Positions 5,872-59,435 of a stretch of 59,435 nucleotides of DNA are shown here, one piece after another. This stretch comes from a bacterium. Its GTDB lineage: Bacteria > Patescibacteriota > Minisyncoccia > UBA6257 > HR35. The notes under the pieces were generated by a model that saw only the letters and a list, made by a program, of their open reading frames with translations, made no database searches and was not told the origin of the DNA. The stretch lies in assembly GCA_041640295.1 (NCBI GenBank), contig JBEQAR010000005.1:1-59435 (forward strand). The letters run 5' to 3'. The translations under genes and the position numbers were made by a program. Numbering within the stretch: the first letter of the stretch is position 1; each line of letters starts with the position of its first letter.

Positions 5872-6771
5872 TTATATTGTCATATTCCTTAAAGCCTGTA
5901 TTCTTTCTTCAACAGGAGGATGAGTTGAAAAAAGATTACCCAACCAATTTATGATTCCTTTTTGATTTTTGAATGGATTAACAATAAATAAGCCTGCTAC
6001 TGCTGGTGAAACATCCATTGGTTGTTTTTGAGAAGATATTTTTTCTAAAGCTTTAGCTAAACCAAGAGGGTTGCGAGTAATTAAAGCTCCAGTAGCATCG
6101 GCTAAGAATTCTCTTTTTCTTGAAATAGCTAATTGAATAAGTTGAGCAAAAATTGGAGCTAATAAAGCAAGAATAAAACCAATAATAAACAAAAAGACAT
6201 TTGATTTGTTATCTCTATCCGAACCACCTCCGTATAAACTAAATCTTAAGAAGAAATCAGCCATAATAGCAATTATTCCAGCTAAAATTGTGGCTATCAT
6301 CATTACTTTAATATCATAATTTTTGATATGAGCTAATTCATGGGCAATTACACCTTCTAATTCTTCTTTGTTTAAATTATTTATTAAGCCAGTTGTAACA
6401 GCTACTAAAGCATTTTTGGGATTTCTTCCTGTAGCGAAAGCATTCATTACCGGAGTATCAATTAAATACAAATCTGGTGTTTTTGGTAGTCCAGCAGTGA
6501 TTGATAAGTTTTCTAATATTCGGTAAACTTCAGGCAAATTCCTTTCTTCAATTTTTTTTGCTTTTGTTAAAGCAACAATAATTTTATCACCATAAAAATA
6601 TGACCAGATATTCATTAATAAGCCAAAAATTACCGCTAAATAAAATATCCATTGATTTTCAAAGATATAAGCAAATAAGTAGCCTAAACCAAAAACTAAA
6701 ACTAAAAACAATGTCATCAAAAACCAAGTCTTCAAATTATTTATTTCAATAAATTTATATGGTGTTGCCAT
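5872..6771 (-). CDS. htpX: M48 zinc metalloprotease HtpX
   Basis: NAFATGRNP, AHELAH, SRKREFLADA, FSTHPP. Confidence 0.95.
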   Translation of the reverse strand: MATPYKFIEINNLKTWFLMTLFLVLVFGLGYLFAYIFENQWIFYLAVIFGLLMNIWSYFYGDKIIVALTKAKKIEERNLPEVYRILENLSITAGLPKTPDLYLIDTPVMNAFATGRNPKNALVAVTTGLINNLNKEELEGVIAHELAHIKNYDIKVMMIATILAGIIAIMADFFLRFSLYGGGSDRDNKSNVFLFIIGFILALLAPIFAQLIQLAISRKREFLADATGALITRNPLGLAKALEKISSQKQPMDVSPAVAGLFIVNPFKNQKGIINWLGNLFSTHPPVEERIQALRNMTI

Positions 6772-6802
6772 TTTTAATTATTTTTAGATGATTTTAATTA
6801 AA

Positions 6803-7417
6803 CTAAAATTTAACTGTTGGGGTTTTTTCTTCCTCTGCTTGAGCATCAAAAAACTCGACTGACTTGAAACCGAAAATTGATGAGATTAAATTATTAGGAA
6901 ATTGACTAATGAATGTGTTATATTCCATCACTACTGAATTATAAAATCTTCGAGCTGCCATAATTTTGTTTTCGGTGTCAGTTAGGTCTTGTTGAAGCTG
7001 AAGAAAATTTTGATTAGCTTTTAAATCAGGATAATTTTCAGCAACAGCAAATAAGGTTTTTAAAGCTGAAGCAATCATATTATTTGCATCTATTTCTTCT
7101 TTAATATTTTTTGAATTAAGAAAGTTCGTTCTTGCTTGAGTAATATTTTCCAATAATGTTTTTTCATGAGCAACATAACCTTTGACCGTTTCTATTAAAT
7201 TAGGAATTAAATCAAATCTTCTTTTTAATTGAATTTCAATATCGCTTTCAGCCTCTTTTACTCTTTGACGTAAATTAATGAGTGAATTGTAAATAATAAT
7301 AAACCAAAGAACAATAGCCGCTACTAAAGCTGGAATATTAAATTTCCAGGGAATAATATTGAAAAATCCACTTAAGATTAAGCCGATAAATATCAGAATA
7401 AATAGAATATTTTGCAT
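6803..7417 (-). CDS. lemA: LemA family protein
   Basis: LKRRFDLIPNL, AVAENYPDLKANQNF, ARRFYN; upstream of htpX. Confidence 0.95.
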   Translation of the reverse strand: MQNILFILIFIGLILSGFFNIIPWKFNIPALVAAIVLWFIIIYNSLINLRQRVKEAESDIEIQLKRRFDLIPNLIETVKGYVAHEKTLLENITQARTNFLNSKNIKEEIDANNMIASALKTLFAVAENYPDLKANQNFLQLQQDLTDTENKIMAARRFYNSVVMEYNTFISQFPNNLISSIFGFKSVEFFDAQAEEEKTPTVKF

Positions 7418-51095: not shown

Positions 51096-51500
51096 CTAAT
51101 TGGTTGATTCATTAAGTAAATTTTTTATTTTTTTTATTAACTCATCTAAATCTTCAGATTTATTTATTACCCCTACTGCCCCGATTGATTTTGCAAAATC
51201 ATTGTTGATTGCTTCTCCGCTATCAGTATACTTAAGATTAGTTAGTATTAAAATTGGAGGACATTTTTCTCCTAAATCTTTCTTTAGGTGAACTAATAAT
51301 TCTAAACCATTCATTTCTGGCATAGAAATATCTAATAAAATTAAGTCTGGTAAGTTTTCAAAAATTTTTAATAAAGCTTCTTTGGCGTTGTAAAAACATA
51401 TTATTTCAAAACCCTCTTTTTTTAGAGCGAAAGAAATAACCTCACAAAATGATTTTTCGTCATCGATTAGCATCAATTTTTTAGGCCTTTGCTCGGCCAT
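51096..51500 (-). CDS. Single-domain response regulator
   Basis: IDDE, DLILLDISMPEMNG, ILTN, NK; ATG at 51500. Confidence 0.9.
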   Translation of the reverse strand: MAEQRPKKLMLIDDEKSFCEVISFALKKEGFEIICFYNAKEALLKIFENLPDLILLDISMPEMNGLELLVHLKKDLGEKCPPILILTNLKYTDSGEAINNDFAKSIGAVGVINKSEDLDELIKKIKNLLNESTN

Positions 51501-51694
51501 AAAATAATTATAAACCAATAATTAAAAATTTAAAAAACAACCCCAATTTGTTAATATCTATATTCAAATAAAAACTTCCTACCAAATTTTCCTTAATCTA
51601 TATTAGTTTATTGAATTTTTGAAATATTTTCCTATTTGTATTATTTATTTCTCTAGCTATTTTCTTATTAAAATCGATAGGTAAACGATTATTT

Positions 51695-53315
51695 TTATAA
51701 TATTATTCTTTGCGTAGGTTTTAGATTATTGATAAAATATTCATCATGGGAAACGAAAATAATAGTTCCCTGGTAATCCTTTAAAGCAGATTCAAGTTCT
51801 TCTATTGTGTAAACATCTAAATGATTTGTAGGTTCATCTAAGATCAAAAGGTCTGGATTTTTAAATAAAATAGCTGCAAGCTGAAGTCTTCTTATCTCAC
51901 CGATACTTAAATTTCTAAGTTCTAAGTTAAAAACATTGGGAATTTTTATTCTATTAAGAATAGCTTTAATCTCTCCTTCATTAATGCTGTATTCATTTTT
52001 TAGAAATTGATAAACTTTTTGGTCAATATTTTCGATTTTAGGTGATTGGGGTAAGTATCCGATTCTAATACCTTCTTTAAGAGTTATTTCTCCTTCTGAT
52101 GGTTTTATTTCACCAAGAATTATTCTAATCAAAGTTGTTTTTCCTGAACCATTTGGTCCTTCAATTAAAAGTCTCTCTCCGGCTTCTAAAATTAAATGAG
52201 GGATATTAATTAAAATCTCGTTGTTAAAAGAATAAGATAATCCTTTAATTGAGAGTATGGTTCCTTTAAAAACTTCTGGCTGAGGTTTTGAAAACTCTGG
52301 TCTTTCCGGAGGTTTAGGTTCTGTAAGTTGAGAAAGTTCTCTTAAAATTCTTTCTTCTTGAACCTTAGCTTGTTTGGCTATTTTAGCTCCTTTTGCTCTA
52401 TAAAAAGCATCACGACTCATTTTTTCAAACTCTTGAGATTTTTTCTTTAACTCCTCGATAGCTTTCTCTAGTCTTTTCCTCTTTCTTTCTTGTTCCTCAA
52501 ATTTCCTTATCCTCGCTAAAAACTCTTCCGCTTTTTCTTTTTTATAAAATTCATAATTCCCTCCCCAAACTCTTAAAGTTTTGGTTTCTTCATCTATCTC
52601 GAAAATCTTAGAAGAAATATTTAAAAGTCTTCGATCGTGAGTAATATATAAAATTCCTCCCTTAAATCTTCTCATTTCTTCAAAAAGTAGATCTATAGAG
52701 TCTTTATCTAAATTGTTAGTTGGTTCATCAAGAATCCAAAAATTAGCATCAGAAAGTAAAACCCCGGCTAAAGCTATTTTTGTAGCTTCACCGCCAGATA
52801 TTTCTTGAATATTTCTTTTGAGAATTTCTGAGCTGATGTTTAATTTTTTTAAAATTCTACGCCTTCTTCCTTCATAATCCCATAAATTAAATTGAGTCAT
52901 TCTTTCAATTATTTGAGAATATTCTTCTGTTTCTTCAGGTGAAAACTCCTCTTTTTCGGAAAGTTCTTTATATCTTTTAACTAATCTTGCAAATTCACCA
53001 CCTGTCCATTCTAAATATTCTTCAACAGTACCAGAAAATTGTAGTTTAACTTCTTGAGGTAAATAAGCTATTTTAAATTCAGGGGATATAAAAACATTAC
53101 CAGAAAAATCTATATCTTCGGGAACAGTTTTTTTTATCATAAAAATTTATAATTAATCTAATCAAGGTCGATTTCCCACTTCCATTTCTTCCAATTAAAG
53201 CAACTTTTTCTTTTGAATGAACCACAAGTTGACTATTATGGATTAATGCTTTATTTTCAATTCTTAAGAATTTAATATCGCAAAATAAAATAGAATGTAT
53301 TTTAAAACTTATCAT
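51695..53315 (-). pseudogene. ABC-F family ATPase, frameshifted near the 5' end
   Basis: Walker A GRNGSGKST in ORF 53097-53315 continues in ORF 51695-53140 after an A8 run (53128-53135; A7 restores frame); two ABC cassettes, no TM helices. Confidence 0.85.
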
Positions 53316-54252: not shown

Positions 54253-54638
54253 TTAATTAATCTTTAGAATTCTTAATAATTCTTTAGCAAAAGAAAACAT
54301 TTTGTTGATTTGTTCTTTGGAAAATTGAGCGGGTAAATATCTCTTTCAATGTAAACAATATTTAAATCATTAATAGTCTCATCATGCTTTTGAATAAATT
54401 TTTTTATTTTTTCCTTTTGATTACTAGCTTTTGCGTAATACTCAAGAAGCTTTTCTATATTATGAATTTTCTCAAAATCTCCAAGAATCTTCCAAAGAGA
54501 ATATTTAAAATATAATTGGATTGATTGTTCGATGTGAAAAGCATTAAGGTCGTAAAATTCTTTTTTATAAACCTCTTTGCCAATTCTAAAAAATCTTTGC
54601 TCTCTTATTTTTAAAATTTCTCCTTCTTTTATTATCAT
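54253..54638 (-). pseudogene. HEPN domain protein, frameshifted
   Basis: YDLNAFHIEQSIQLYFK, KIHNI; one base missing at about 54341-54345 restores YIExRYLP...ILKIN* ending in a TAATG overlap at 54253. Confidence 0.7.
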
Positions 54639-54745: not shown

Positions 54746-56327
54746 CTATGATTTATCATAGTCAAGGGGTAATTTTATATAAAATTTACTTCCTTTGCCT
54801 TCGCCTTCGCTTTCTGCCCAAATTGTTCCTTTATGAGCTTCAACAATATTTTTAGCAATATAGAGACCAAGTCCTGTACCTCTAATTTCTTTTTTAATCG
54901 AAGGATCACGAACAAATTCGCCAAATAGTTTTGATTGTAATTCTTTTGACATCCCTATACCAGAATCACTAACTTCAATTATCAATTCTTTATGATCTTT
55001 ACTATAAACTTTAACCTTTACCCATCCTTGGGGTGTATATTTAATAGCATTATCAATTAAGTTTTGAATCACCTGGGAAAATCTCACTTTATCTACTTTA
55101 ATAATCATCTGTTCTAAATTTGTTTCAAAACTAAGTTCTAAATTTTTCTGCTTAGCAAGTAAATTTAAATTATTAACAATTTCTTTTATTAAACTAATAA
55201 TTTCTACTTCTTCAAAATGTAATTCTAATTTTCCTTCTTCAATTCGTCGATAATCCATAAATTCTTCAATGAGAACCAAAAGATTATTAACTGATTCCTC
55301 TATTTTTTTAGCAAAATCTTTTGCTTGTTCGGGAACATTATCAATATTTTTAGCAATAAGTTCAGCATAACCTTTTACTACTGCCATTGGTGCTTTGACT
55401 TGATGCGAAGCAAAAGAAAGAAACTCCGATTTTATTCTATTAAGTTGCTCAAGTTTTTCTTTTTGTTCAACTTCCCTGTAAACAGAATTTATTAACATAA
55501 TTCCAATAGGTATTAAAAGTATTAGAATAATAAAACTATATACAATCTCTTCAATGTTTTTTAATAAAAAGAATCTTAAAATTACAGATGACCAAAGAAG
55601 AAAGATAATATACTCAGCTGAGATTAATTTAATATTAAGAAAAGTGAGTTTACTTATAATTAAAAATACTAAAATTAGCCAAAAATAAATAAATAAAGGT
55701 CCCAGCCATGTATATTCAAAAATTTTAAAATAAGGGAAAAAAAGATCGAAAATAAGTACAGGAATAGAAGCCAATAAAGATGCTGTTAGAAGTATTTTAA
55801 AAATTTTTTTATCTAATAATAAAGCATTATAAAGTTTTTTTATCTATAATTATATCAGATTTAATTATTTTTAAAATTAGAACTAGAAACCCTAGTAAAA
55901 AATTTATGATAATATAAGAAGCATATATCAAATACCAATAACCTATTTCATACTCAATCCTTATTGCTCTTCCTATTATTTTATTAGAGAATAATAAATA
56001 ATAAGAAAAAAATAGTGTGGGAATAAATAAAATAAAATAAATTATTTTATTTTTTAAAATAGGCGTTTTATAATATGAGACAAATAAGAAAAACAAAAAG
56101 CTAATAATTAGACCAAAAATATGGGTAATTTTAATCCATATATCTCTGTATAATATTAAATATTCATAAAAAAATCCTAATATTCCAATACTCCATATAC
56201 TAATAGATAATAATAAAAAAGAAAAAATAAGTTTTTCCCAATTTTTTTCTTTTTTTAATAAAATACTTATGCTTAATAAAAAATTAGCTATAGCTATAAT
56301 AGATATTAAGTATAAAGCTACAGACAT
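54746..56327 (-). pseudogene. Sensor histidine kinase with HisKA_7TM-like membrane input domain, frameshifted
   Basis: N-part 55827-56327 (TM helices) joins C-part (ASHQVKAP, NLIDNAIKY, DSGIG, GTGLGL) if one A is removed from the A7 run at 55835-55841. Confidence 0.8.
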
Positions 56328-57100
56328 TTATTTAAAAAATTTTTAGTTAGAAATTTTATTTTTAATTTTAACAAAAGTCTATTTAAATAAGTATTTTTAA
56401 ATATTAAACTATTTTCCCCATAAGGTTTAAAATTTTTCCAATTAAAAATGGTATTTAAAAATTTTTCCAGAGGATCTCGTAAAAAATATACAGGCCTTAC
56501 CGGGTCTTGGAAATTATTAAAATATCTAAACAAAATTCCTTCTTTAGGATAATTTTGTTTATATTTCTCAATATACCCTAAAGGAAAGTTTATAGCCTTT
56601 AATTTCTTTTCTAGGCTTAATTTTATAAAAGCATAGCCTCCTAAAAAATTATATTTTCGGCTATAGTCAACAAGTGTTTTAAATAAAATTAACATTATTA
56701 AATGCCGGGGCAAATATTCTTTATTATTTAATTTATATGGTTTTACAATTAACCTTCCAATTTCCACTAAATTTTGTTTATCTATCTGCCTTATTTCGTT
56801 AGGTTCTTCAAATTCAAAATAAAGTTGTGTTGGTAAAGGATAATCTTTAATTAATCTTACTGTACCTATAACTTCATCCGCTATTGAAGCTATAAAATAT
56901 GTTGACTTATTATTTAAGTCATATTCATCTTTTTCTAGGCCATCAGGAAATTTATTAGGGTTTATATAATTCTTTGAAGCATAAATTTCATACCTCAATT
57001 TAAACATTTTTATTAATTCTTCTTCTGAATCCGGTATGCCAAATTTAATTTCTATATTTTTAGATTTATTATTTATAATAAGTGTATTATAAATTATCAT
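56318..57100 (-). CDS. Autoinducer-synthase/GNAT superfamily acyltransferase (LuxI/FeeM/ExoAT-like)
   Basis: FKLRYEIY, GLEKDEYD, IGTVRLI, LP, VEIGRL. Confidence 0.78.
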   Translation of the reverse strand: MIIYNTLIINNKSKNIEIKFGIPDSEEELIKMFKLRYEIYASKNYINPNKFPDGLEKDEYDLNNKSTYFIASIADEVIGTVRLIKDYPLPTQLYFEFEEPNEIRQIDKQNLVEIGRLIVKPYKLNNKEYLPRHLIMLILFKTLVDYSRKYNFLGGYAFIKLSLEKKLKAINFPLGYIEKYKQNYPKEGILFRYFNNFQDPVRPVYFLRDPLEKFLNTIFNWKNFKPYGENSLIFKNTYLNRLLLKLKIKFLTKNFLNKCL

Positions 57101-57819
57101 TGTTTTGGTTTAAATCCTTTGTTTAAAATACCTTGATTGGCATATACAAATTTAGTTTCAGAAATATTGATAAAACCAGCTTCCTCTAAAAAATATTTTT
57201 GTTCATTATAATCAAACAGATTGTTAGTGTCGAATTTATGCACCTTTTGAATTATTCTATTGTAATAAAACATTTTAATAGTTGGTACGAGTAGTCTAAG
57301 TACAGTTATTAAAGTTCGCATAAACCCCATTTGTTTAATTGATTTTTTAATTCCATCAATATAGATAACAAAAGGTTTAAAATTTTTATGAATATTAGAG
57401 GTAACTATTATTCCTCCTGGTTTTAAAACTCTAAAAAATTCTTTAAAAACTTCCAACCTTCTCTCTCTCGGAATATTATAGATAGTATTATTTGTAACAA
57501 TTTTGTCAAAATAATCATTATCAAATGGTAATTTCTCTTCTAAATTGTGAAGTACTATTCTTGCTTCTGGATTTTTATTTTTGTAAATATCTAAAGCGTC
57601 CTTAGAATAATCTAAAGCAATTACTTTTGCTTTCAATTGTTCAAGAAGAACTGCTAAATTGCCTGTTCCTGCCCCTGCATCTAAAATTAATTCTCCTTCT
57701 TTTGGCTCTGTCTCTTTTATAATTTCATTTAGTAATTCTTGGTAAGGAATTAAAAGATTTAAGCAATCATAAATTTCGAAATACTTCTTCCAAAAATTAG
57801 GCCCTAAAGTTTTTTTCAT
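57097..57819 (-). CDS. Class I SAM-dependent methyltransferase
   Basis: ILDAGAGTG, ALDYS, LPFDNDYFD, RVLKPGG. Confidence 0.9.
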   Translation of the reverse strand: MKKTLGPNFWKKYFEIYDCLNLLIPYQELLNEIIKETEPKEGELILDAGAGTGNLAVLLEQLKAKVIALDYSKDALDIYKNKNPEARIVLHNLEEKLPFDNDYFDKIVTNNTIYNIPRERRLEVFKEFFRVLKPGGIIVTSNIHKNFKPFVIYIDGIKKSIKQMGFMRTLITVLRLLVPTIKMFYYNRIIQKVHKFDTNNLFDYNEQKYFLEEAGFINISETKFVYANQGILNKGFKPKQ

Positions 57820-57838
57820 ATTATTTCCGATAATAAAT

Positions 57839-59435
57839 TCATAAATTTTTTTGGTGGGTAATAATCCAATGAATTTTTAAAGGCTCTTCGTATATTTTAG
57901 TCTCTGATAAAGGAATTTTCGAGGAATGTACAATTTTACTTAAAGCTATGATATCTCTATAATACATAGGGGGCCAGTTTATTTTTTTTATAAACTTTAC
58001 TTCATTGTTAGGTCTTATATTTCCCCAAATTAATACTCCGCCCATGTCGAGAAGATTATTGAATATATAATTCAAAAGATTGGCAGCTTCGCTATCATCA
58101 AAATAGTCTAAAAGACCTACTACTTCTATAATATCGAATTTTTTATTTAATTTAAGCTCATTAATTTTTTTTGCGTTTAAATTAATTCCCTTATATTCTA
58201 CAAAGGTTAAATTATAATCATTTAAATTTTTTTTAACTAACTCTAAAACATCTTGATGTTTATCTATATTTGATAATTTGATAAATTTGTTTTTAAAATT
58301 AAAATTTTCTTTGCGCGAGATATGATAAATAGCATGAATAATAGCTCGACAAGATCCTCCGCCTATTGAGAGAATTTCTAAATTGTCTTTATGACGAAGT
58401 TTTTCTTTAATTATTTCTATAAGAAGTGATTCTACAATTTTTAATCTATTTCTAACAGCTTTAGGTTGAGAAAGAATATTGTGCCAAAATAAAGTAAGCA
58501 AACCGTGTAGGAATCCTTTTTTGAAAATTTCTTGTTTTCTTGAATGAATAGTGTATAAAACTTCTAAAGCATGAGTTGAACCTCCTTTTTCTAAAACAGG
58601 CTTACTATCTTCTGTTGTTTTTCTCAAAATCTTTTTTATTAAAAATGGCGGTATGTTATTAATTATTGGAATAATTAAAAATCTTAAAGTTTTTATTACA
58701 AAATTATGAGTTTCAAAAGGATGAAGAGGTTTAAATTCTTGTACCATTAGATAATTATTGTCTCTTGTTTCTTCCATTAAATTTTTTATTTCTTCCATAA
58801 CTATTGAGGCAATTTCTTCTATTTCAAGATTGGAAATATCAACAATTGGTTCTCCTATATAAATTTTAACTCTTTTTTTGCCAGTTAAAAATAATAATAA
58901 ATTTTTTAATTTAGTACATTCATAAACATTTATCAACGCCATGGGAATAATAGGAGCTTTTGTTGATTTGTGTAAATAGCCAATACCCCTTTTGCCTTTT
59001 TGTAATTTTCCATCTTTACTCATTTTACCTTCTGGAAATATAAAAATTTTGCCACTATTATTTAATGCACCAACTGCATTTTTTAATTTATTTTCTAAAT
59101 TATCATTTGAACCTCGTATAACTGGAATGCTTCCATTAAGCCTCACATAAGAAGCAACTATAAGTGAAATTGGAAATATTGGTGGAGCTTTGAAAAAATT
59201 AAAATATTCGACAGCAGCAATAAATCTAATTGGCAGTATTTTTGAAAAAGGATATTTCAAAGACCGTAAATATTTAGTAAAAGCCCAAGCTCCTATTGTT
59301 GAATCCAGAAAATGAGTATGATTAGCTGCGATAATTAATTTTTTAGATGGATCAATTTTGTTTAAATTTTCAATTTCTTTTATTTCAATTTTAAAAACTA
59401 ATTTTGCAATAGGATAAAAGAAATAATAAAGAACA
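57839..59435 (-). CDS. PlsC-type acyltransferase fused to a PhcB/YnbC-like methyltransferase domain (5' end outside window)
   Basis: Frame open to the window edge and includes ANHTHFLD (NHx4D) and FPEG; C-domain AVRNR, ILSIGGGSCR, VGLLDYF, GNI. Confidence 0.8.
   Translation of the reverse strand, partial: VLYYFFYPIAKLVFKIEIKEIENLNKIDPSKKLIIAANHTHFLDSTIGAWAFTKYLRSLKYPFSKILPIRFIAAVEYFNFFKAPPIFPISLIVASYVRLNGSIPVIRGSNDNLENKLKNAVGALNNSGKIFIFPEGKMSKDGKLQKGKRGIGYLHKSTKAPIIPMALINVYECTKLKNLLLFLTGKKRVKIYIGEPIVDISNLEIEEIASIVMEEIKNLMEETRDNNYLMVQEFKPLHPFETHNFVIKTLRFLIIPIINNIPPFLIKKILRKTTEDSKPVLEKGGSTHALEVLYTIHSRKQEIFKKGFLHGLLTLFWHNILSQPKAVRNRLKIVESLLIEIIKEKLRHKDNLEILSIGGGSCRAIIHAIYHISRKENFNFKNKFIKLSNIDKHQDVLELVKKNLNDYNLTFVEYKGINLNAKKINELKLNKKFDIIEVVGLLDYFDDSEAANLLNYIFNNLLDMGGVLIWGNIRPNNEVKFIKKINWPPMYYRDIIALSKIVHSSKIPLSETKIYEEPLKIHWIITHQKNL

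Follow-up and report, generated by a model that had tools for sequence, protein, structure and literature searches.

In the LuxM/LuxN, AinS/AinR and CqsA/CqsS (LqsA/LqsS) systems, the synthase of a hydrophobic signal is encoded beside a polytopic kinase without a large extracytoplasmic domain, and an arrangement of this kind is seen in the locus described here, a set of packed genes at the right-hand end of contig JBEQAR010000005.1 (assembly GCA_041640295.1) from a member of the Candidate Phyla Radiation (CPR) or Patescibacteria (the whole contig of 59,435 nucleotides was analysed and is referred to below as the window). These genes encode an N-acyltransferase (NAT), a class I S-adenosylmethionine (SAM) methyltransferase (MT2), a PlsC-family acyltransferase fused to a further methyltransferase domain (MT20), and a histidine kinase with a seven-transmembrane (7TM) sensor, and we find them to be one copy of an optional Patescibacteria cassette whose constant core is the NAT together with the 7TM-sensor histidine kinase. 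The likeness to the systems named above does not extend to the proteins themselves, as the LuxM/AinS-type and pyridoxal phosphate-dependent CqsA synthases are unrelated to NAT, and the LuxN/CqsS-type kinases are hybrids carrying their own receiver whereas the window kinase is a HisKA_7TM protein in which Pfam finds no Response_reg domain, with the receivers present as separate single-domain proteins. A second likeness is to OlsB/OlsA and OlsG, where a single lipid is worked on by an N-acyltransferase of the PF13444 superfamily together with an O-acyltransferase of the PlsC family and a SAM methyltransferase. The combination of an OlsB-type N-acyltransferase with a PlsC-family partner in one pathway is also indicated here by a PF13444 match, by the operon and by gene fusions; the Ols enzymes, however, use acyl-acyl carrier protein (acyl-ACP) and their genes are not known to be linked to a 7TM kinase, while the cassette is rare and optional and is present here in a genome in which no ACP was found.

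The closest precedent in the same bacteria is the report by Bernard et al. (2020, mSystems, PMC7567580) of 36 CPR LuxI homologs found with a hidden Markov model, of which 18 lie next to a sensory kinase, and this is the same kind of pairing that we describe. According to that report, CPR LuxI homologs have other aromatic residues in place of Trp-35, HdtS (PlsC-family) homologs also occur in CPR, and the sensory region of PhcS is matched by none of the CPR PhcS homologs; its main text assumes an N-acyl homoserine lactone (AHL) product and mentions neither a methyltransferase or acyltransferase partner nor kinase adjacency for the HdtS homologs. The core synthase–kinase pairing in CPR is therefore not new, having been predicted already in silico (PMC7567580), and what we add is the PlsC/MT20 arm with PlsC as an accessory, the chain of MT2/PlsC/MT20 fusions, the identity of the sensor as HisKA_7TM, the way in which sensor clades sort with the enzyme sets, and the absence of acyl carriers. 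The PhcB/PhcS/PhcR/PhcQ system of Ralstonia (PMC6580516) is similar in that one operon encodes a class I SAM methyltransferase, a sensor kinase and a CheY-like receiver, and its signal is described as a methylated fatty-acid derivative. In that account the methyltransferase alone is the synthase, whereas in the cassette it is the N-acyltransferase that constantly accompanies the kinase, and in 5/31 loci no MT2 was detected (we assembled 31 distinct NAT loci, the window included, and MT2 counts come from searches with the MT2 of the window). Methyl esters of N-acyl alanine (NAMEs) from Roseovarius tolerans are also relevant as NAT plus MT2 would, in the simplest case, be expected to yield the methyl ester of an N-acyl amino acid; they are reported to be structural analogues of AHLs with no role in AHL signalling and no known candidate synthase gene, and nothing in that report ties them to CPR (PMC11580390). 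Judging by titles and abstracts, we found no paper about this cassette.

The window comes from a 655-kb genome with a completeness of 98% and a GC content of about 25%, and its proteins have their homologs in Patescibacteria. Five packed minus-strand open reading frames (ORFs) at the right contig end encode the cassette enzymes and the kinase pieces. The first is the PlsC–MT20 fusion (57839..59435; ORF 57839–59434, 531 amino acids), which joins PF01553 to a PF12147-type class I SAM methyltransferase and is truncated at its 5' end by the contig end with some 4–8 residues missing. After a gap of 19 bp this is followed by MT2 (57097..57819, 240 amino acids, PF13649 at 66.4 bits), NAT (56318..57100, 260 amino acids) and the kinase, with overlaps of 4 bp between MT2 and NAT and 10 bp between NAT and the kinase gene. 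The kinase is present as an N-terminal fragment with the first part of the HisKA_7TM membrane sensor (55827..56327) and a C-terminal part with the last membrane helices, HisKA and HATPase_c (54746..55843; ORF 54746–55774), separated by a frame break at 55804..55844. On the same strand, starting 3,228 bp from the kinase stop, is a gene for a receiver-only response regulator, itself the probable phosphoacceptor (51096..51518, 140 amino acids, receiver domain 70.7 bits). A first-pass annotation made from the sequence alone had described four tightly packed genes for a PlsC-methyltransferase, a methyltransferase, an acyltransferase and a membrane kinase, with a lone receiver 3.2 kb downstream; the ORFs and Pfam matches bear out the domains, the packing and the receiver, but the kinase occupies two ORFs and not one. 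The receiver belongs with the cassette, as its ortholog in a genome of the same genus (G002; 74% identical) adjoins the cassette there, and a receiver gene is found directly 3' of the kinase in four other loci (L031, L044, L046 and L048).

NAT was matched by three Pfam families, all above their cut-offs of 24, 27 and 22.4 bits respectively: PF00765 (Autoind_synth) at 52.8 bits, PF21926 (FeeM) at 52.5 bits and PF13444 (Acetyltransf_5) at 31.6 bits. The PF00765 alignment covers residues 26–181 and profile positions 7–161 of 183, and the PF21926 alignment spans only profile positions 2–105 of 158. The motifs listed in the first-pass annotation could all be located (R36, Y-x-x-Y at 37–40, E56-x-D58-x-x-D61, R82-L83 and E113-x-x-R116) and most of these positions are invariant across 32 homologs, but the LuxI-type set of N-terminal residues is incomplete in NAT, as R36, D58, D61, R82, E113 and R116 are retained while Tyr stands in for Phe-29 and Trp-35 is missing from this segment (Phe and Trp numbered as in PMC7567580). 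The view that it is closer to the N-acyl amino acid synthases is not borne out by the Pfam scores, which are effectively tied, or by the predicted fold, which is nearest to AHL synthases. In a Foldseek search of the PDB with the AlphaFold2 model (predicted local distance difference test score, pLDDT, 93), the top matches were the AHL synthases BjaI (E 1.6e-8), LasI, RpaI, MesI, EsaI and TofI with TM-scores of 0.46–0.68, the coenzyme A (CoA)-dependent BjaI, RpaI and MesI being at the top, and FeeM was absent among the 50 fold matches listed. NAT resembles the FeeM-type synthases and the PEP-CTERM acyltransferase TIGR03694 in passing PF21926 and in having TIGR03694 as its best NCBIfam match; FeeM/FeeL has an adjacent dedicated ACP, however, and there is none beside NAT. 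We rejected a PEP-CTERM module of TIGR03694 and PrsK because the TIGR03694 score of 53.6 bits is far under the cut-off of 111.95 and PrsK did not appear when the top 25 NCBIfam matches were listed for three orthologous kinases. Public annotations name the NAT homologs AHL synthases. The family is small, with 35 proteins in an index of 5.8 billion sequences and, at E <= 1e-30, 132 out of 1.84 billion cluster representatives. In one database protein (P0214, 617 amino acids) a NAT homolog is joined to an aminotransferase domain of class I/II (PF00155, 162.9 bits), a family which also includes the CqsA-type autoinducer synthases.

A NAT gene followed on the same strand by a 7TM-sensor gene was found in 28/31 loci, in some of which MT2 or a short ORF intervenes, and so the enzymes and kinase do occur together in other genomes, as the signalling proposal of the first-pass annotation needed. 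The remaining loci are L021, in which the kinase is convergent, L013, in which the contig ends first, and L015, which is 3.4 kb long and has none. The pairing was seen in all ten of the loci that come from our sample of the phylum, eight of which have distant NAT homologs (E 1e-9 to 1e-24, about 25–33% identity) and two strong ones. MT2 adjoins NAT in 24/31 loci, PlsC is present in 11/31 and a receiver in 6–7/31. The sensors at NAT loci vary, and include 7TM-histidine kinases, 7TM-GAF-histidine kinases, additional divergent 7TM kinases and kinase-less 7TM proteins, and PF16927 (HisKA_7TM) was found in 9/9 of the kinases and kinase-like neighbours from NAT or PlsC–MT20 loci scanned with Pfam. 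The cassette is patchily distributed, with NAT in 6/61 relatives and 12/401 genomes of the phylum, and NAT is broken by stops inside the match in two genomes (G006 and G016). It should be noted that one genome (G005) has a doubled cassette (L013, 5854–8945) in which MT2–NAT, an MT20 standing alone and another NAT, 39% identical to that of the window, come one after the other before the contig ends. Homologous proteins of 361–446 amino acids are also found within a few kb of NAT in L021 (5747–6856), L025 (1985–3070) and L028 (5720–7060), and the L021 member, the only one on which Pfam was run, is a radical SAM/SPASM protein.

Gene fusions connect the enzymes of the cassette. NAT–MT2 fusions in both orders are represented by three cluster representatives (P0156, P0185 and P0232), PlsC–MT2 fusions by L009 and L011 (genomes G021 and G016), and PlsC–MT20 fusions by the window, L012 and L055 (genomes G006 and G015) and database proteins P0037–39 and P0111. 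Taken together, these fusions tie all four enzyme domains into one pathway. The conserved methyltransferase partner of NAT is MT2 and not the fused domain. The best solved relatives of MT2 are phosphoethanolamine N-methyltransferases (E 4e-9), and in the PDB, NCBIfam and the Atlas it has generic class I matches only. The PlsC domain scored 53.2 bits with PF01553 (cut-off 23), retains the HX4D (HTHFLD) and FPEG motifs, matches the PlsC structure 5kym (E 1e-5) and is the sole PF01553 domain encoded in the genome. A PF01553 gene of any kind was found in only 17/61 relatives, yet in 6/6 of the NAT-positive ones, and in this order PlsC is a cassette gene and not a housekeeping gene. PlsC, with or without MT20, also adjoins 7TM proteins in three loci (L035, L042 and L054) of genomes lacking NAT.

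The fused MT20 domain appears from profile comparisons to be a PF12147-type (Methyltransf_20) class I methyltransferase. The window copy scored 16.4 bits, below the cut-off of 21, while homologs in L042 exceed it with 24.5 and 31.0 bits; PF12147 is annotated on most of the listed MT20 homologs, and it is present in 72–98% of the members of the closest Atlas clusters (score 0.97). A full-length PlsC–MT20 ortholog of 535 amino acids is encoded in L055. The motifs ALEVLY, AVRNR, GLLDYF and GN, which the first-pass annotation had likened to the PhcB family, are present and conserved among 32 homologs, though we found no assignment of PhcB to a family in the literature and no tie between PhcB and PF12147. 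No specific NCBIfam model matched MT20, and its fold matches, which include natural-product C- and O-methyltransferases, cyclopropane fatty acid synthase and the pseudo-methyltransferase of fatty acid synthase, are not decisive. We note that G002 has no MT20, and in its locus (L008) a Shikimate_DH-like (NAD-binding) protein of 299 amino acids (6049–6948) is encoded between a stand-alone PlsC and MT2. With this protein in place of MT20, the tailoring arm is swapped between close relatives.

The N-terminal kinase fragment matched PF16927 with 38.9 bits (cut-off 28.6) over profile positions 2–165 of 224, and the C-terminal part matched HisKA with 49.5 and HATPase_c with 102.7 bits, so that a 7TM sensor, HisKA and HATPase_c are all present despite the split gene. 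With PF16927, seven related proteins encoded at other loci (kinases, and 7TM proteins lacking a kinase part) scored 34–59 bits. The papers on HisKA_7TM listed in a literature search concern archaeal and eukaryotic kinases and, as listed, name no ligand. We produced a tree of 59 sensor-domain rows, leaving aside the broken gene of the window and hits shorter than 120 amino acids, and in this all 26 NAT-linked sensors were placed in one group of 39 rows with a support of 84 in the Shimodaira–Hasegawa-like approximate likelihood ratio test (SH-aLRT). Within this group the family of the window clusters with those of distant lineages (99) and not with the non-NAT kinases of its own order, and sensors linked with an enzyme set that includes a ThiF-like protein form a separate clade (92), while those linked with PlsC/MT20 only fall in another (100). 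Mapping the enzyme sets onto the tree required 16 changes compared with 30.0 in shuffles, and 0/200 shuffles were as low. This sorting supports, but does not prove, a view in which the sensor clades track the neighbouring enzyme set, because the tree is a quick one with long branches and kin share labels.

The ThiF set is found in Patescibacteria without NAT, where a HisKA_7TM kinase follows four genes for an ELFV-dehydrogenase-like protein, an unknown protein of about 500 amino acids, a nitroreductase-like protein and a ThiF-like protein. The layout is seen in L032 (1625–8007), L034, L037 and L038, with Pfam run on L032 only and the others recognised by gene sizes and order; in L037 the arrangement is looser, with a 294-amino acid ORF directly next to the kinase and another three ORFs of comparable size about 3 kb off. 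It looks like another set for small-molecule or modified-peptide synthesis paired with the same sensor family.

Comparison with the intact 512-amino acid kinase of G002 located the frame break in the window kinase. Residues 1–150 of the G002 protein align to one frame of the window and those from 162 onwards to another, and the second alignment begins at 55813, upstream of the TTG start of the C-terminal part at 55774, in a frame that is open from 55843. At the break the window has 31 extra bases compared with G002 and a flanking 10-base direct repeat, GATAAAAAAA (minus strand), at 55835–55844 and 55804–55813 with an A7 run in each copy, and one base fewer there would give an uninterrupted kinase with a loop insert of ten residues. 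The two pieces are 57–70% identical to the G002 kinase and are open apart from this single break, with all of the catalytic boxes visible. In sequencing run X1 (91% of sampled words), Logan contigs break off at 55811 and resume at 55839, and 55812–55838 is bridged by none of them; among the contigs of four runs none spans the break with another length, and no indel or joint is listed there. The break may be a real lesion, a variant in the population or an assembly error, and the circuit in this assembly may run on a split or slippage-rescued kinase or may stand open. A second split gene is found nearby (51695–53315, minus strand), where an ABC-F type ATPase is encoded in ORFs of 72 and 481 amino acids with a frame shift at an A8 run (53128–53135), and an X1 variant contig which is one base shorter at this run (depth 10.7 of 30.5) would restore one frame.

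The supply of substrates was assessed by profile searches of the genome, and these found no ACP (PF00550), AMP-binding ligase (PF00501), ketoacyl synthase (PF00109) or CoaE (PF01121), and no matches to CdsA, DegV or PlsY. The expectation that CPR bacteria lack fatty-acid synthesis is therefore upheld in this genome, and no means of acyl activation was found either. LuxI/FeeM enzymes normally require acyl-ACP or acyl-CoA, and the gene content does not provide for the donor that an AHL synthase would use. As ACP, CoA synthesis and acyl activation are not encoded, the acyl donors are probably host-derived. SAM, on the other hand, can be supplied as MetK is encoded. CPR have been reported to be unable to make membrane lipids and to be enriched in lysolipids (10.1101/465690).

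We give an even chance to a reading in which the cassette is a make-and-sense lipid circuit, with a lipid of the N-acyl amino-acid type being made, methylated and read by the 7TM kinase, and a receiver-only protein as the output. NAT would acylate an amino acid or amine on its amino group, using a fatty acyl or another acyl group, and MT2 would methylate what is formed, giving for instance a methyl ester or an N-methyl compound. In this lineage PlsC–MT20 might then add further acyl and/or methyl decoration, and the lipid would partition into the membrane where it could be bound by the 7TM sensor of the adjacent kinase, from which phosphate would pass to the receiver-only protein encoded 3.2 kb away. 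The three receiver genes of the genome are all in frames of 126–141 amino acids, making a classical DNA-binding output unlikely. The chemistry of the product, its sensing and this output are what we infer from the domains and their arrangement.

Several observations weigh against such a circuit. The kinase gene is interrupted in the window, one locus (L015) carries NAT and MT2 with no kinase within its length, and 7TM kinases are also found in 14 relatives without NAT. In this 98%-complete genome we found none of the ACP, CoaE or acyl-activating enzymes from which LuxI/FeeM-type donors would come. As related genomes are not independent, fewer independent events underlie the linkage than the counts suggest, and the 39-row sensor group has an SH-aLRT support of only 84 in a quick tree with many long branches. 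The chemistry, expression and ligand binding on which the circuit depends are presumed, and bulk aminolipids too are made by a combination of PlsC, an N-acyltransferase and a methyltransferase (OlsA/OlsB/OlsG).

This last point leads to the main alternative, remodelling of the membrane, in which OlsB/OlsA-like NAT and PlsC with OlsG/PmtA-like methyltransferases would make a methylated two-chain aminolipid from scavenged acyl chains while a DesK-like kinase monitors the condition of the membrane and not a diffusible signal. It would account for the PF13444 match of NAT, for the fusions of PlsC to either methyltransferase that place the four domains in one pathway, for the relationship of MT2 to phosphoethanolamine N-methyltransferases and for a lone PlsC in a genome without phospholipid synthesis genes, and it suits the reported inability of CPR to make membrane lipids and their lysolipid enrichment (10.1101/465690). 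We nevertheless consider it unlikely, as a cassette so rare and patchy cannot be an essential lipid route, PlsC is found in only 11/31 NAT loci compared with the kinase in 28–29, sensor clades that track the enzyme set fit ligand specificity better than a general membrane sensor, and there is no ACP to provide donors for OlsB/OlsA-like enzymes. The same lack of ACP, and of CoaE, applies if NAT is a genuine LuxI-type synthase making an acyl-homoserine lactone from SAM, with the methyltransferases and PlsC unrelated or serving a separate product, and this we regard as highly improbable. Although the PF00765 score, the AHL-synthase folds with CoA-dependent enzymes on top, the retained R, D-x-x-D, R and E-x-x-R residues and MetK are all in keeping with it, and public annotations of homologs and Bernard et al. 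(PMC7567580) read AHL synthase, NAT has no LuxI Trp and carries Tyr instead of Phe, its matches to the FeeM and OlsB-type models are as good as that to the LuxI model, a kinase is its partner with no LuxR-type receptor involved, and the three NAT–MT2 fusion representatives argue for methylation as part of the same product.

A different question is whether the circuit is decaying in this particular genome, with the kinase a true pseudogene and the enzymes remnants or working without sensing. The 31 extra bases with a direct repeat are duplication-like when compared with the intact gene of G002 and do not look like a simple homopolymer miscount, no contig from the four runs spans the break with another length, and NAT is also broken in G006 and G016. 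On balance we consider decay somewhat unlikely, since both kinase pieces are otherwise open and similar to the G002 protein with their catalytic boxes visible, the X1 contigs end on either side and leave the site itself uncovered, and the ABC-F break, with its coexisting intact-length variant, points to homopolymer error or population variation. Frames interrupted at A runs are also reportedly rescued by slippage in AT-rich reduced genomes, and the A7 runs here would be open to such rescue.

In the first-pass annotation the adjacent kinase was also suggested to read the product as a signal, by which the system could report host contact or density. Combining this with the lipid circuit and the missing acyl carriers gives a broader reading that we offer tentatively and judge distinctly unlikely as a whole. 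In this, acyl chains from host-derived lipids would be made into a methylated lipoamino acid read by the 7TM kinase, the circuit would report contact with the host membrane or its lipid supply and not the density of the bacterium's own population, and more broadly, HisKA_7TM clades would each be paired with a synthase set of their own (NAT/MT2, PlsC/MT20, or ThiF/nitroreductase/ELFV-dehydrogenase). If true, it would amount to a modular toolkit for chemical communication in ultra-small bacteria; CPR/Patescibacteria live attached to other microbes and their sensing of partners is almost uncharted. The cassette is compact, with three to four enzyme genes plus the kinase, and could be expressed in E. 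coli, offering a direct route to a CPR-made lipid and its receptor, and the fusions indicate which enzymes to combine. The lack of an acyl carrier also raises the concrete question of which donor is used by a LuxI/FeeM-fold enzyme and a PlsC enzyme.

PADLOC matched only the generic methyltransferase domain of MT2 (mad2, 77 bits) and none of the other seven proteins, and we rejected an anti-phage defence reading of the locus. A scan for promoters and terminators listed no terminator-like site on the minus strand and 74 promoter-like sites compared with 55.3 +/- 8.1 in shuffles, though it is uninformative at 25% GC. Directly 3' of the kinase is a gene for a HEPN-domain protein of 121 amino acids (54273–54638, minus strand, 43.1 bits) with a 64-amino acid ORF alongside, and although this pair had no match in PADLOC, the two may form a small toxin–antitoxin-like pair. 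The cassette is frequently found at contig ends or on short contigs of 6.8–8.9 kb (the window at 59435, L009–L012, L055 and L058), which suggests that strain variation or surrounding repeats hamper the assembly of this region.

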